A stretch of 64,000 nucleotides of DNA from the NCBI RefSeq assembly GCF_000027125.1, contig NC_017626.1; one strand, 5' to 3'. Below are positions 16,468 through 21,742 of the stretch, in pieces (the first letter of the stretch is position 1; each line of letters opens with the position of its first letter). The notes under the pieces were generated by a model that was not told the origin of the DNA, did no database searches, and worked only from the letters and a program-made list of their open reading frames with translations. This DNA comes from Escherichia coli 042 (GTDB taxonomy: Bacteria > Pseudomonadota > Gammaproteobacteria > Enterobacterales > Enterobacteriaceae). Position numbers and translations under genes: made by a program.

Positions 16468-16629
16468 ATGGCTATTTCAGTAAAGCCGGTATTGATAAGT
16501 GAGAAGCAAATGGAAGCGATAAAGAAAATTCAGGAAGAGCAGCGTAAAAAATCAGGAATTGGAGTAGCGCCAACTCTGCATGAAATTGCTCGAGGGTTAA
16601 TAGATAAGGCGCTGGCAGGCTGTATGTGA
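16468..16629 (+). CDS. Hypothetical small protein (53 aa, below ORF-track cutoff)
   Basis: ATG at 16468 with SD aaggggg 6 nt upstream; MAISVKPVLISEKQMEAIKKIQEEQRKKSGIGVAPTLHEIARGLIDKALAGCM; stop at 16627-16629. Confidence 0.4.
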   Translation: MAISVKPVLISEKQMEAIKKIQEEQRKKSGIGVAPTLHEIARGLIDKALAGCM

Positions 16630-16645
16630 AAATGGATGGCATCGC

Positions 16646-17107
16646 ATGGAACTAAAATTTATTGATAACCCTGTGCGATTACAGGCCTTTCTTAACGATC
16701 CTGGCAATACCGAAAATATTGTTGAGCCGGGGCACACGTACTACATCAAGCCTGATGCGGTATATCTCGGCATCTACGAAGGATTGGTGCTGGCTGGCGT
16801 TCATGAAGTGCGTAACTTCTGGCATAGCATTGTTGAATGCCATGCGGTGTACGACCCCGGATTCCGTGGTGAATATGCACTGCAAGGGCATCGATTATTC
16901 TGCAAATGGCTTCTCGAAAACTCACCATTCCTTAACAGCATCACTATGGTTCCTGACACCACGAAATACGGACGGGCAATTATCCGTTTGCTTGGCGCTA
17001 CCCGTGTTGGTCACCTTGATGATGCTTATATCAGATGTGGTAAACCCGTCGGCGTAACGCTTTATCAGTTAACTCGGCAACAATATAAGGAATTCAGCGA
17101 ATGTTAA
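16646..17107 (+). CDS. Hypothetical protein, first gene of a four-gene coupled operon
   Basis: 153-aa ORF; its stop overlaps the next start. Confidence 0.55.
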   Translation: MELKFIDNPVRLQAFLNDPGNTENIVEPGHTYYIKPDAVYLGIYEGLVLAGVHEVRNFWHSIVECHAVYDPGFRGEYALQGHRLFCKWLLENSPFLNSITMVPDTTKYGRAIIRLLGATRVGHLDDAYIRCGKPVGVTLYQLTRQQYKEFSEC

Positions 17108-17778
17108 TTACCCATATAGCTCATAAACATCTCAATCGTGCCGTATACGAAAAAGGCGGTGATGGTGGTGCCTCTAAAGCTCAGGCGAAGGCCCAGCAGC
17201 AGGCAATTGATTTGCAGCGCGAGCAGTGGAATACGGTGATGAATAATCTCAAGCCGTATGCAGAAGTCGGATTGCCTGCTTTACAACAACTACAAGGACT
17301 GATGACTCTGGAAGGGCAGAATAAAGCCGCGAATGATTTCTTTGGTTCTGGTTTATATAAAACACAGGCAGATCAGGCCCGTTATCAGAACCTTGTCTCA
17401 GCAGAAGCTACCGGGGGGCTTGGCTCAACAGCTACCAGTAACCAGTTATCTTCCATTGCGCCCATGCTTTATAACAATTGGCTTAGTGGGCAAATGCAAA
17501 ATTATGGAAACCTGCTAAATGTCGGGATGAATGCGGCATCAGGGCAGGCAACGGCAGGGCAAAACTACGCCAATAATACCGGACAACTCTTGCAGGGGCT
17601 TGGCGCTATTCGTGCAGGTCAGGCGCAGCAGCCATCCAGTCTTGCGCGTGGTATTGGTGGGGCGGCATCAGGCGCTTTAGCGGGTGCGCAACTTGGTTCC
17701 GTTGTTCCGGGTATAGGTAATGTCGCCGGGGCTATTGGTGGTGGGCTTATTGGTCTTGTTGGGGGGCTTGGATTCTAA
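17101..17778 (+). CDS. Hypothetical protein with glycine-zipper C-terminus
   Basis: 225 aa; C-terminus GIGGAASGALAGAQLGSVVPGIGNVAGAIGGGLIGLVGGLGF. Confidence 0.55.
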   Translation: MLITHIAHKHLNRAVYEKGGDGGASKAQAKAQQQAIDLQREQWNTVMNNLKPYAEVGLPALQQLQGLMTLEGQNKAANDFFGSGLYKTQADQARYQNLVSAEATGGLGSTATSNQLSSIAPMLYNNWLSGQMQNYGNLLNVGMNAASGQATAGQNYANNTGQLLQGLGAIRAGQAQQPSSLARGIGGAASGALAGAQLGSVVPGIGNVAGAIGGGLIGLVGGLGF

Positions 17779-19199: not shown

Positions 19200-21304
19200 T
19201 GGCTAAAGCATGGAAAGATGTTATCGCCTCTCCACAGTATCAGGCGTTAGCACCAGAACAAAAAGTGCAGGCTCAGGAGCAATACTTCAATGAAGTCGTG
19301 GCCCCGCAAGCCGGAGAAAGTGTAGAGCAGGCTAAGCAGGCTTTTTATGCTGCCTATCCACTACCATCTACGAATGAAATAGACCGATCCCAATCAGCAA
19401 CTCAAAATATTCAACATACATCATCTGATAATTCTCTTGCGTCAGGGTATGCAAAGTTAGCTACTCAGCAAAGAGAGGGGCTTGAGCGTTCAGCAGAACA
19501 GGGAGCCAGTCTTGGGGCTGCGATGCGCGATGCTATAACAGGCGAAAGCCGAATGACTCCAGAGATGGAGAGACTGCAAAATGTCGCCTCTGCCCCAGAA
19601 TTGAACTCACTAAGCATGGATGCCCTGAAGGCTGGATGGTCTCAACTTTTCGGCTCTGACGCGTCTCAGGAAAAGATTCTTCAGGGAATGGGGGCGACAT
19701 TAAGGCAGGATGAGAAGGGGAATACTATCGTTTCTCTGCCATCAGGTGATTATGCCCTGAACAAGCCGGGTTTATCACCGCAAGACCTGACTTCGTTTCT
19801 TGCTAATGCGCTGGCGTTTACACCAGCGGGCAGGGCTGGAACGGTGCTTGGTGCCATAGGAAAATCAGCAGCTACAGATTTAGCACTACAGGGAGCCACC
19901 AGCCTTGCTGGTGGAGAAGATATTGATCCGTTACAAACGGTAATTTCTGCTGGCATTGGTGGTATTGGTAAGGGGCTGGAAAATACAGCGAGTGCGGTTT
20001 CGAGGGCTGTTCGTGGTGATATGTCGCCTGAAGCAAAGGCTGCTGTCGACTTTGCATCGGAAAGAAATCTGCCGTTAATGACCAGTGACATGCTGAAAGA
20101 TAAAACCTTTATGCAGAGTCAGGCTCAGACATTAGGCGAAAGAGTTCCTTTTTTTGGAACCGGTAAGAATCGGCTGAATCAACAACAAGCACGAGAAAAT
20201 TTAGTCAGAACATTTAGCGATGGTCTGGGTGGCATTTCTGATAAACAGCTTTATGAATCTGCGACTAAAGGGCAACAAAAATTCATTGAGGCAGCAGGAA
20301 AGCGATATAACCGCATAATTGACGCTATGGGGGATACCCCTGTCGATCTCTCAAACACGGTAAAAACTATCGACAATCAGATTGCCGTGTTAAGCCGCCC
20401 TGGCAAATCTCAGGATAGAGCCGCGGTAAAAGTCTTGCAGCAATTTAAAGACGATATCACCAGCGGACCAAATGACCTGCGTCTGGCGAGGGAAAACAGA
20501 ACCGATCTTCGAAAGCGATTTATAGCGTCATCTGACACTGTTGATAAAGATACGCTCCAGAAAGCCAGCGATATTATCTACAAGGCATATACGGCGGATA
20601 TGAAAAAAGCCGTAGCCAAAAATCTTGGAGCAGACGAAGCCATTAATATGGCAAGGGTTGATCGCTCATGGTCTAAATTCAATGACATGATGGGAAGAAC
20701 GCGCGTTCAAAAGGCAATAGCCAGCGGCAAGGCCACGCCTGAGGATGTAACAAAACTCGTTTTTAGCCAAAGCCCATCAGAACGTTCTCAGCTTTACAGG
20801 CTTCTGGATGACAATGGTAGGCAAAACGCACGAGCAGCTATAGTTCAGAATGCTGTAGATAAGGCGACTGATCCGTCTGGAAATATCAGTGTTGAGAAGT
20901 TTATTAATGCGTTACACCGGAACAGGAAGCAATCAGCAACTTTCTTTAAAGGCGTACATGGAAAGGAACTGGACGGCGTTATTAAATACCTCAACGATAC
21001 AAGACACGCGGCAAAAGCGAACGTTCAAAACTTAAATGGTCAGCAGCTTTATGGATTGTTAGTTGGTGGTGGCATCATAAACGCAGCAGTATTGGCGGGG
21101 ATGCTAAAAACGGCTGCGTTTATTGTTCCTGCTGCTGGTGCCGTAGGCGGAGCAGCGAAGGCATACGAAAGCCCTGTTATACGAAATGCCTTGTTACGTC
21201 TGGCAAATACGCCAAAAGGTAGCACAGCATATGACAGAGCGATCAGTACGGTCACACAATCGCTCACCAGAGTCGTACAGGCATCACAAAAAGAAGCTCA
21301 ATAA
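19199..21304 (+). CDS. Hypothetical large protein
   Basis: 701-aa ORF, start overlaps the previous stop; hydrophobic Gly/Ala-rich segment near the C-terminus. Confidence 0.55.
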   Translation: MAKAWKDVIASPQYQALAPEQKVQAQEQYFNEVVAPQAGESVEQAKQAFYAAYPLPSTNEIDRSQSATQNIQHTSSDNSLASGYAKLATQQREGLERSAEQGASLGAAMRDAITGESRMTPEMERLQNVASAPELNSLSMDALKAGWSQLFGSDASQEKILQGMGATLRQDEKGNTIVSLPSGDYALNKPGLSPQDLTSFLANALAFTPAGRAGTVLGAIGKSAATDLALQGATSLAGGEDIDPLQTVISAGIGGIGKGLENTASAVSRAVRGDMSPEAKAAVDFASERNLPLMTSDMLKDKTFMQSQAQTLGERVPFFGTGKNRLNQQQARENLVRTFSDGLGGISDKQLYESATKGQQKFIEAAGKRYNRIIDAMGDTPVDLSNTVKTIDNQIAVLSRPGKSQDRAAVKVLQQFKDDITSGPNDLRLARENRTDLRKRFIASSDTVDKDTLQKASDIIYKAYTADMKKAVAKNLGADEAINMARVDRSWSKFNDMMGRTRVQKAIASGKATPEDVTKLVFSQSPSERSQLYRLLDDNGRQNARAAIVQNAVDKATDPSGNISVEKFINALHRNRKQSATFFKGVHGKELDGVIKYLNDTRHAAKANVQNLNGQQLYGLLVGGGIINAAVLAGMLKTAAFIVPAAGAVGGAAKAYESPVIRNALLRLANTPKGSTAYDRAISTVTQSLTRVVQASQKEAQ

Positions 21305-21322
21305 CTGGTTAGCCACGGATGG

Positions 21323-21742
21323 CTAATTTTTGTTCTTTGCTCTCATCCACAGGTAAAGAAGGGCAATAACAAGACAAAAAACAGAGAATAGATAACCTAC
21401 CTCATATGGTGCGCCAAAAAAATTAGCTATTGATACGGGCAAAAAAGCTGAAGCGATCAAAATTGAAAGGCAAAAAATAAGCCCAGTAATATAGTTTATT
21501 AAATTCTTAAATGAGAAATGTTTTGCTTGATTTACGGTCTTAGCGAATGATCGCTTAACGACGGATAAAAGCAAATAGATGGCGACAGTTGCTAATGCCC
21601 CTTTCCACCAGTCTGGATATAGTTTTGCGACAACCAGACCAAGGAAAACCATGATGACAGCCTGAGCATTCACACCAACCCTCCCTTTAGCGTTGTTTAG
21701 AATGGCAATCATCATATATCCAAGACATGGCATTTGGTACAT
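21323..21742 (-). CDS. Small polytopic membrane protein (candidate superinfection-exclusion / immunity protein)
   Basis: 139 aa with about four hydrophobic helices; AT-rich; convergent with the four-gene operon. Confidence 0.5.
   Translation of the reverse strand: MYQMPCLGYMMIAILNNAKGRVGVNAQAVIMVFLGLVVAKLYPDWWKGALATVAIYLLLSVVKRSFAKTVNQAKHFSFKNLINYITGLIFCLSILIASAFLPVSIANFFGAPYEVGYLFSVFCLVIALLYLWMRAKNKN

Follow-up and report, generated by a model that had tools for sequence, protein, structure and literature searches.

A satellite island of Escherichia coli 042 carries homologues of the P22 ejection proteins in an operon with predicted SOS control

Introduction

Known satellites alter the building of helper particles, in capsid size or packaging specificity, or steal tails. 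We know of no satellite for which a supply of the proteins that move DNA through the recipient's envelope has been demonstrated. Here we analyzed a stretch of 64,000 nucleotides from Escherichia coli 042 (contig NC_017626.1, assembly GCF_000027125.1), which is referred to as the window and to which coordinates refer unless a locus of another island is named. It contains a satellite island with an operon in which four coupled genes encode homologues of gp14, gp7, gp20 and gp16 of the podovirus P22.

The closest described element is EcCIMP1 of E. coli MP1, a phage-inducible chromosomal island (PICI) reported by Pick, Stadel and Raivio (2025, ISME J; PMC11773190). EcCIMP1 excises only on induction of the P22-like phage Kapi1, by which it is specifically transduced, and it adds superinfection immunity against Kapi1 (PMC11773190). 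Pick et al. noted a likeness of EcCIMP1_017-019 to 'DNA transfer proteins' as well as DUF2824 and guessed a role in packaging (PMC11773190). In P22 itself very divergent ejection proteins can replace one another, and the mutations that escape the exclusion protein SieA map to gp20 and gp16 (Leavitt et al., PMC10461980). Tape measure proteins (TMPs), the counterparts of ejection proteins in long-tailed phages, and the ejection proteins themselves are both thought to form a trans-periplasmic DNA conduit and are both targets of exclusion proteins that block injection (PMC10461980). The reference list of that paper includes Ebel-Tsipis and Botstein 1971, on the exclusion of generalized transducing particles by a P22 prophage. 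In the staphylococcal pathogenicity islands (SaPIs), operon I is controlled by LexA (Ubeda 2007, as cited in PMC5052747).

Results

Four coupled genes encode homologues of P22 gp14, gp7, gp20 and gp16

A preliminary description of the window, made from its sequence, had listed six open reading frames (ORFs), all of which were found where it placed them. The same six genes are called by RefSeq in E. coli U15A, which is 100% identical over the module.

16468-16629, plus strand: leader ORF, 53 aa, island-specific
16646-17107, plus strand: gp14 homologue, 153 aa (phrog_651; DUF2824)
17101-17778, plus strand: gp7 ejection protein homologue, 225 aa (phrog_598)
17778-19199, plus strand: gp20 ejection protein homologue, 473 aa (phrog_917)
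19199-21304, plus strand: gp16 ejection protein homologue, 701 aa (phrog_770)
21323-21742, minus strand: protein with several transmembrane segments, 109-139 aa depending on the start codon, convergent to the other genes and in the position of P22 sieA

Judged by their family matches and alignments, the four large proteins are homologues of P22 gp14, gp7, gp20 and gp16, encoded in the P22 order. The 153-aa protein matched phrog_651, the family of P22 gp14, with an E value of 1e-66. It is 23% identical to P22 gp14, 83% identical to Kapi1_055 and 99.3% identical to its EcCIMP1 counterpart. The 225-aa protein matched phrog_598 (P22 gp7; E 1e-69), with 56% identity to P22 gp7 and 99.6% to the EcCIMP1 protein. 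The 473-aa protein matched phrog_917 (P22 gp20; E 1e-111) and is 38% identical to P22 gp20 over residues 1-223; its N-terminal half is conserved and its C-terminal half is variable. The 701-aa protein matched phrog_770 (P22 gp16; E 1e-161), with 30% identity to P22 gp16 over 482 aa. BLASTP of the four proteins against those of P22 gave E values of 3e-8 to 5e-54, and the Pfam families P22_gp7, Inj_translocase and Phage_P22_gp16 match the proteins of sister islands. The preliminary description had guessed from the size series that these were the P22 ejection proteins and had proposed comparing them with P22. The PHROG E values of 1e-66 to 1e-161 and the alignment of each protein with its P22 counterpart (23-56% identity) confirm this guess. 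In P22 the order 14-7-20-16 is the same, and sieA then follows on the opposite strand. NCBIfam and PADLOC scans of all six proteins gave no match.

P22 gp14 is annotated as 'head morphogenesis' and belongs to DUF2824; no role for a P22-type gp14 was found in the literature consulted on it. The gp14 treated in PMC8954989 was discarded as a source because it is T7 gp14, a different protein.

The best phage match of gp16 was phage N7 (66% identity) and that of gp20 was the APSE phages (53%), while gp20 and gp16 are 82% and 92.6% identical to their counterparts in the island of E. coli A29. Short patches of DNA share 85-93% identity with P22-like phages, particularly where the end of gp20 joins the start of gp16. 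Such a patchy identity is typical of the mosaic exchange known for ejection genes.

The junctions of the four large genes agree with the overlapping stop and start codons reported in the preliminary description: the gp14 stop and the gp7 start overlap as ATGTTAA, and the gp7/gp20 and gp20/gp16 junctions read TAATG. The 53-aa ORF does not overlap the gp14 gene, from which it is separated by 16 nt. The strong Shine-Dalgarno sequence ascribed to it is present (AAGGGGG, ending 4 nt ahead of the ATG), as are the glycine-rich C-terminus of the gp7 homologue and the hydrophobic Gly/Ala segment of the gp16 homologue, which spans residues 617-649.

The operon has a conserved promoter with a predicted LexA box

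Generic scanning for sigma-70 promoters returned fewer promoter-like sites than in shuffled controls and missed the real promoter in front of the leader ORF. This promoter was recognized only by alignment of the leaders of 12 islands from 10 genera. The following elements surround the operon.

16340-16372, plus strand: intrinsic terminator, ATGCCACC...GGTGGCAT followed by T7, insulating the module from upstream transcription
16383-16427, plus strand: inverted-repeat operator spanning the -35 region, TTTCATATTTTGCAAT / ATTGCGATTTGTGAAA, with 12 of 16 positions complementary
16429-16434, plus strand: -10 hexamer TATAAT, conserved across genera, with a weak -35
16435-16454, plus strand: predicted LexA (SOS) box AACTGTTGTTTTATACAGTT, 19.0 bits, directly after the -10 and ahead of the Shine-Dalgarno sequence
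21307-21328, both strands: bidirectional intrinsic terminator after gp16, common to the operon and the convergent gene

The operator arms lie at 16383-16398 and 16412-16427, and their core positions are invariant in the 12 aligned leaders. From these features and the gene junctions, the leader ORF and the four ejection genes are read as one terminator-bounded, translationally coupled operon with a conserved promoter.

LexA sites were scored with a position-weight matrix built from E. coli SOS boxes, the training sites scoring 13.6-26.2 bits. The box at 16435-16454 was the second best in the window. The best was at 26216-26235 (AACTGTATATAAACACAGTT, 24.0 bits), about 30 nt upstream of dinD and close to the right end of the island. 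This box served as an internal positive control, dinD being a known SOS gene. U15A lacks dinD at the corresponding position, though it is identical over the module. When 14 leaders were scanned, boxes of at least 15 bits were found at the same position in 9, from E. coli (three islands), Pantoea, Serratia, Erwinia, S. liquefaciens and Cedecea. The Klebsiella, K. aerogenes and Enterobacter leaders have variants one base short, and no LexA box was found in the leaders of Salmonella and Pectobacterium. The EcCIMP1 leader, which was checked separately, has the same box. A third LexA-like site, TGCTGGATTTGCATACAGAG at 18728-18747 (16.2 bits), lies inside the gp20 coding sequence and is probably due to chance.

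The leader ORF has 125 database relatives across Enterobacterales. It gave no significant Pfam match, and tblastn against 50,697 phage genomes found none. An AlphaFold2 model (predicted local distance difference test score, 88) has an extended N-terminus and two helices. Foldseek of the model against the PDB gave nothing significant, the top entries being complexes of TCP domains with DNA at E ~3. The modeled fold may be compatible with a ribbon-helix-helix repressor, and we infer that the leader protein binds the inverted-repeat operator.

The module is under purifying selection

The ratio of nonsynonymous to synonymous substitution rates (dN/dS) between independent island copies was 0.15 for gp16, 0.27 for gp20 and 0.15 for the leader ORF, the values for gp20 and gp16 being measured against the island of A29. 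Of 5,426 complete E. coli genomes, 177 hold the module over at least 80% of its extent and 239 hold the junction of primase, leader and gp14. Cases of decay were also seen: gp16 is shortened in strain AHB2, and an IS3-family insertion interrupts gp16 in TUM10008. The dN/dS values of 0.15-0.27 and the conservation across genera indicate that the module is functional and contradict the earlier suggestion of a possible remnant. Chance ORFs are excluded by the strong homology together with the purifying selection.

Related islands carry different entry proteins behind the same leader ORF

Related loci were collected by means of the leader ORF, and one locus was counted per distinct island (n=20). 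Every inspected locus has the same backbone with a DUF927 primase; a short Escherichia contig (L009) was left out. In 19 of the 20 loci the leader ORF is followed by virion entry proteins, usually with an assembly chaperone. Capsid, portal, terminase and lysis genes were not found in this slot in any of the 20 loci. The contents of the slot were as follows.

gp14-gp7-gp20-gp16: window, EcCIMP1 and AHB2 (gp16 shortened)
gp7-gp20-gp16: Klebsiella aerogenes
gp20-gp16 only: E. coli A29 and SCU-122, Serratia, Edwardsiella
Three large proteins of internal-virion type, one with transglycosylase similarity: Pectobacterium
108-aa protein and TMP: Pantoea, Erwiniaceae (2 loci), Enterobacter (HK97-type TMP), Cedecea (by gene-size pattern only)
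Lambda-type chaperone and TMP: Leclercia
Phage_TAC_9 chaperone and TMP-like protein: Salmonella
TMP or 'injection transglycosylase'-like protein: Klebsiella
Tail-fibre tip and tail-fibre assembly protein: Serratia liquefaciens
No large cassette: Mixta (L026)

These gene contents suggest that the same leader ORF precedes interchangeable entry-protein cassettes in 11 genera.

Other genes were seen close to the cassettes. Behind the entry cassette of the Klebsiella (L012 10124-10645) and Salmonella (L018 11222-11740) islands comes a gene for a protein of some 172 aa, the first ~50 residues of which match a terminase small subunit family (phrog_57); the island in the window has no such gene. This protein may redirect packaging. 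Sister islands also had RexA/RexB (L017 13660-14965), Abi_2 genes (L012, L014 and L016) and an AAA ATPase together with a Peptidase_S8 protein (L012 3538-6877). The family thus also carries recognizable defence genes.

The convergent membrane gene occupies the sieA position

The preliminary description had reported a convergent, AT-rich ORF for a membrane protein of 139 aa. Its AT-richness was confirmed, with a GC content of 0.383 against 0.46-0.51 in the four ejection-module genes, whereas its length depends on an uncertain start codon: 139 aa from 21742, 129 aa from 21712 (RefSeq) or 109 aa from 21652, the last being the start called in the Yersinia and Edwardsiella homologues. Hydropathy analysis placed transmembrane segments at about residues 20-42 and 78-136, one N-terminal and two or three C-terminal, a layout that is roughly similar to that of SieA.

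The same description had called the protein SieA-like and proposed a comparison with SieA, which turned out negative. BLASTP against P22 SieA (type A) gave an E value of 0.57, that is, no similarity. The type-B SieA of prophage HS1 gave no match at 1e-3, while types A and B detect each other at 5e-23. The sequence lacks the conserved SieA motif FnRYPnEAnnFNK, none of the Pfam, PHROG, NCBIfam and PADLOC families matched, and tblastn against the 50,697 phage genomes found no match. The protein is thus, as far as these comparisons tell, a positional analogue of SieA and not a member of its family.

The family of the membrane protein is small, with 19 clusters. A copy with 71% identity in Yersinia enterocolitica belongs to a complete P22-like prophage with portal, scaffold, coat, gp4 and gp10, where it is convergent to gp16 and occupies the sieA slot, with gp16 on one side and a Head_binding tailspike gene on the other; the window itself has no tailspike gene. 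In an Edwardsiella primase island, a copy with 83% identity follows gp20-gp16. At both loci gp16 is of the window's type (73-75% identical) while gp20 is only 25-47% identical, which suggests that gp16 and the membrane gene move as a unit. From its position, the protein is most likely a candidate exclusion factor inherited from the sieA slot of a P22-like phage. Such a function would fit the contribution of EcCIMP1 to Kapi1 immunity.

Small envelope proteins of unrelated sequence (multi-transmembrane, secreted, transmembrane with coiled coil, lipoprotein) take this slot in other islands. In three E. coli islands (window 21652-21742, L004 13978-14418, L005 14043-14438), the genes that converge on gp16 have only the first ~30 codons in common (MMIAILNNAKGRVGV...). 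Beyond these codons the three proteins are unrelated, one being multi-transmembrane, one differently multi-transmembrane and one secreted-looking. The conserved 5' region suggests a recombination joint for the swapping of cargo downstream.

The island belongs to the EcCIMP1 family

The module lies in an island with the following features.

6055-25982, plus strand: whole island, ~19.9 kb, EcCIMP1-family PICI between yicC and dinD, flanked by imperfect direct repeats
6055-6077 and 25960-25982: flanking imperfect direct repeat GTGTACATA-NN-GGTGTACATAAT
13127-15883, plus strand: Zn-ribbon/TOPRIM/DUF927 primase-helicase (RefSeq annotation), backbone gene upstream of the module
15909-16020: iteron cluster 1, putative origin, 3x GTTGGTTCA, AT-rich spacer, 3x inverted TGAACCAAC
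22706-22891, minus strand: second AlpA/excisionase-like gene (alpA_1 of EcCIMP1; phrog_66)
23410-23530: iteron cluster 2, of the same design (3x GTTGGTTCA, AT-rich spacer, 3x inverted TGAACCAAC)

The gene order is integrase, AlpA, AntA/B antirepressor, DUF4222, Ash-family ORF, small ORFs and primase, followed by an iteron cluster, the module, the second AlpA-like gene, the second iteron cluster, PerC and a Doc-toxin pair. The 12-mer of the flanking repeat is also found at both island ends in strain AHB2 (L001), and the primase is 75% identical to that of the Pectobacterium island. With an integrase, AlpA, a primase and adjacent origin, flanking att repeats and its size, the element is, on its gene content, a Gram-negative PICI of the kind published in 2025 as EcCIMP1 (PMC11773190). 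Among the island ORFs no capsid, terminase, portal, tail or lysis genes were found, and the ejection module provides the only virion genes. As gp7, gp20 and gp16 are virion components, the 'no structural genes' criterion of PICIs fits only in the loose sense of Pick et al.

The preliminary description had spoken of a P4-like island. Integrase, AlpA, Ash ORF, primase, two iteron clusters and the C4, isrK and int-alpA RNAs agree with this term, whereas sid, psu and delta families were not found among the island ORFs and the class used in the literature is PICI (PMC11773190). Rfam placed the isrK RNA (67 bits) and the C4 antisense RNA (79.5 bits) inside the 'ash family' ORF, at 10478-10555 and 10618-10705, and the int-alpA RNA (60.6 bits) at 7403-7469, just after the integrase. 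All three matches are above the Rfam gathering thresholds.

Iteron cluster 1 closely follows the primase, and cluster 2 separates alpA_1 from PerC; enclosed by the two are the ejection operon, the membrane gene and alpA_1. An interval of about 1 kb between the membrane gene and alpA_1 (21743-22705) has no RefSeq gene, no Rfam match and an unremarkable GC content of 0.48; EcCIMP1 has a comparable gap without annotation. A pac site or an unrecognized RNA might be located there. At 24267-25750 on the minus strand lies a low-GC pair, a Doc-family toxin (152 aa, phrog_577) and a preceding 336-aa protein with weak similarity to antirepressors or regulators. A two-gene pair of similar size and strand lies in the same place in the A29 island. 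The pair may be addiction or abortive-infection cargo.

Discussion

We propose that the module, built from the ejection genes of a P22-like podovirus, is an SOS-induced operon for exploiting the helper, which equips helper-built particles with DNA-delivery proteins specified by the island, a reading to which we give an even chance of being correct. DNA damage that induces a resident P22-like helper prophage would also remove LexA from the operon, so that the island would make its own ejection proteins while the helper builds procapsids. These proteins would be loaded into the helper procapsids, and particles with island DNA would build a trans-envelope conduit specified by the island, not by the helper. 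The likely payoff would be a changed entry specificity, which could open cells that are closed to ordinary particles, lysogens of helper relatives above all. As for the convergent membrane protein, it would most likely block DNA injection by superinfecting P22-like phages.

Incorporation of the island versions is plausible because P22-type ejection proteins load into procapsids and divergent ones interchange. A benefit in specificity is suggested by the minimal form of the module, gp20 with gp16, which are the proteins where SieA-escape mutations map, and by the hypervariability of gp20 and gp16 while the N-terminal half of gp20 is conserved. The gp20 and gp16 of EcCIMP1 are just 26% and 24% identical to those of its helper Kapi1, which indicates that the satellite brings different delivery proteins and not a copy of the helper's.

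Several points weigh against this proposal. That island ejection proteins are present in the particles is something we infer only. LexA control is predicted from sequence only, and the box is degenerate or absent in 5 of the 14 leaders. The SOS wiring of the operon is unproven, since EcCIMP1 excision and alpA induction depend on the helper and not on DNA damage as such (PMC11773190). Transduction of EcCIMP1 by Kapi1 is low, at ~5e3 particles per ml, and any transfer benefit is thus not dramatic in this pair; a Kapi1-like prophage is present in just 2 of 21 EcCIMP1 carriers (PMC11773190). Escape by swapping ejection proteins is not guaranteed either, because P22 itself is subject to exclusion by P22 SieA, and ejection proteins of great divergence are excluded by either SieA type (PMC10461980). 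Finally, the Mixta island has no large cassette, and the gp16 gene of AHB2 is shortened.

Other explanations must be compared with delivery by island proteins. The ejection proteins, with or without the membrane protein, could defend the resident cell against P22-like phages by clogging the conduit of arriving particles, in the manner of decoys or poison subunits; the module would then serve superinfection exclusion instead of transfer. This is suggested by the adjoining membrane protein of sieA-slot type, by the lipoproteins or secreted proteins that occupy this slot in other islands and by the frequency of anti-phage genes in satellites (PMC11364771). Exclusion must be constitutive, however, whereas an operon that is silent without DNA damage is expected from the predicted LexA box and the terminator upstream. 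The membrane gene forms a convergent unit of its own that could exclude alone, as SieA does in P22, no PADLOC family matched, and decoy activity leaves the cassettes of TMP with chaperone and of tail fibre with chaperone in the same slot unexplained. We therefore regard defence as unlikely. A helper-interference function, which the preliminary description had considered, would mean that island ejection proteins compete with those of the helper for incorporation and yield helper virions that package DNA but cannot inject it, so that the helper would spread less. SaPI operon I, in the same position and LexA-controlled, serves largely for phage interference; such an action is reported for Ccm of SaPIbov5, a homologue of a helper structural protein (PMC8569155); and the island gp20 and gp16 are very divergent from those of Kapi1. 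Nevertheless, EcCIMP1 leaves Kapi1 titres from induced lysogens unchanged (PMC11773190), divergent ejection proteins substitute in P22 without poisoning, and island and helper DNA would share the same particles, so that poisoning would harm the island too. Interference is thus not favoured and appears quite improbable. The Tai (tail assembly inhibition) systems of PICIs were considered and set aside, as they are unrelated proteins acting on tail-tip and needle assembly.

The suggestion of Pick et al. for EcCIMP1_017-019, that helper packaging or capsid assembly is redirected to island DNA, agrees with the location of the module downstream of the primase, where Gram-negative PICIs keep packaging functions, and with the protein with a TerS-like N-terminus after the cassette of some sister islands. 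The strong homology, however, makes these proteins ejection proteins, which are not known to be needed for packaging because DNA can fill the intravirion space in their absence (stated in a review, PMC8954989, with reference to Leavitt et al. 2021). Similarity to terminase, portal or scaffold was not found in the module proteins or the island ORFs, and a packaging role is very improbable. No more credible is the module as a neutral passenger, a piece of some P22-like prophage that was picked up through recombination and plays no part for the island. The patches of 85-93% DNA identity do show ongoing exchange with P22-like phages, the block including the sieA-slot gene occurs in true prophages, and gp16 is shortened in one strain and carries an IS3-family element in another. 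Against this stand the dN/dS of 0.15-0.27 between island copies, an operon that is intact in most of the 177-239 carrier genomes and the occurrence of the same module in Serratia, Klebsiella and Edwardsiella, where it again follows the island-specific leader. The cassette content is, moreover, non-random, with entry proteins only, and a conserved, regulated promoter belongs to the block itself. By the data on selection and conservation the neutral passenger is largely refuted.

Extended to the family, the delivery reading would be that the DUF927-primase satellites of Enterobacterales with the 53-aa leader ORF as their mark carry an SOS-wired, swappable entry cassette that re-equips helper virions: ejection proteins for podovirus helpers, TMP and chaperone for siphovirus helpers, and tail fibre and chaperone in others. 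We hold this wider view tentatively and consider it somewhat more apt to fail than to hold. If it is true, the satellite and not the helper decides which cells are entered, including lysogens guarded by injection-blocking exclusion proteins, and a third mode of molecular piracy would stand beside capsid-size redirection and packaging redirection.

We found no paper with an explicit assignment of gp14, gp7, gp20 and gp16 in satellites, none on predicted SOS control of the operon, and none on a sieA-slot origin of the membrane gene or on interchangeable entry cassettes across the family. Besides Pick et al. (PMC11773190), no paper treating such modules in satellites was found. Should helper capsids take up gp7, gp20 and gp16 of the island, the satellite would have in its hands a step that sets host range and sensitivity to superinfection exclusion, and satellites may thus customize how stolen virus particles enter the next cell. 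The PerC-like protein of EcCIMP1 silences the enterocyte effacement locus (LEE), which gives these findings a bearing on the spread of virulence-regulating islands among E. coli. In addition, the module is a natural source of divergent gp20/gp16 pairs, some of them linked to candidate exclusion proteins. Such pairs could help to dissect the SieA-type recognition of the ejection conduit, which Leavitt et al. name as an unresolved question. The predicted LexA control would link DNA damage to satellite morphogenesis in Gram-negative bacteria, in parallel to SaPI operon I.

Comparison with described systems

EcCIMP1 shares the ~20 kb size and the backbone order of the island: int, AlpA, AntA/B, DUF4222, Ash, small ORFs, primase, 53-aa ORF, gp14-gp7-gp20-gp16, alpA_1 and PerC. 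The 53-aa ORF is 100%, gp14 99.3% and gp7 99.6% identical, and the promoter leader differs by one base. In contrast, EcCIMP1 gp20 is just 49% identical to that of the window, in the N-terminus alone, and its gp16 is of a different type, with 906 aa and an SLT domain versus 701 aa and no BLAST match at E 1e-3. EcCIMP1 is inserted at a tRNA-Thr by proA with a different integrase, whereas the island of the window lies between yicC and dinD. The downstream gene of EcCIMP1 encodes a co-directional 232-aa lipoprotein versus the convergent multi-transmembrane protein of the window, and unlike EcCIMP1 the island of the window has the Doc toxin pair at its right end.

The satellite P4 has in common with the island the C4, isrK and int-alpA RNAs, the Ash region, an alpha-like primase, AlpA and a pair of ori/crr-like iteron clusters. 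It differs in having the capsid-size and late-control genes sid, psu and delta, which the island lacks. The helper of P4-type satellites is a P2-like myovirus, whereas the proven helper of the EcCIMP1 family is a podovirus.

The P22-like podoviruses (P22, Sf6, HK620, CUS-3, Kapi1) encode homologous proteins in the same order and with translational coupling, and have a convergent small membrane gene after gp16, as in the module. They also agree in their mosaic pattern, in which gp7 is conserved and hypervariability falls on gp16 and on the C-terminus of gp20. Unlike the cluster of these phages, the module lacks portal, coat, gp4, gp10, gp26 and tailspike genes and stands outside a virion-assembly operon. 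Whereas the phage genes belong to the late transcript, the module has an island-specific leader ORF and its own promoter with a predicted LexA box. SieA (types A-C; Leavitt et al., PMC10461980) has the same slot and strand relative to gp16 as the 139-aa ORF, and a hydropathy of small inner-membrane type is common to both. The membrane protein is, unlike SieA, shorter, without sequence similarity to type A or B and without the motif.

SaPI operon I has no sequence relation to the module, and it encodes TerS, the capsid-size protein Cpm and Pti, which act on packaging and late transcription and not on cell entry. Nevertheless it lies just after the replication origin, is aimed at helper virion assembly and is controlled by LexA, and the same would apply to the module, for which this control is predicted. 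By analogy, the module and SaPI operon I thus appear to be close parallels in position and predicted control.

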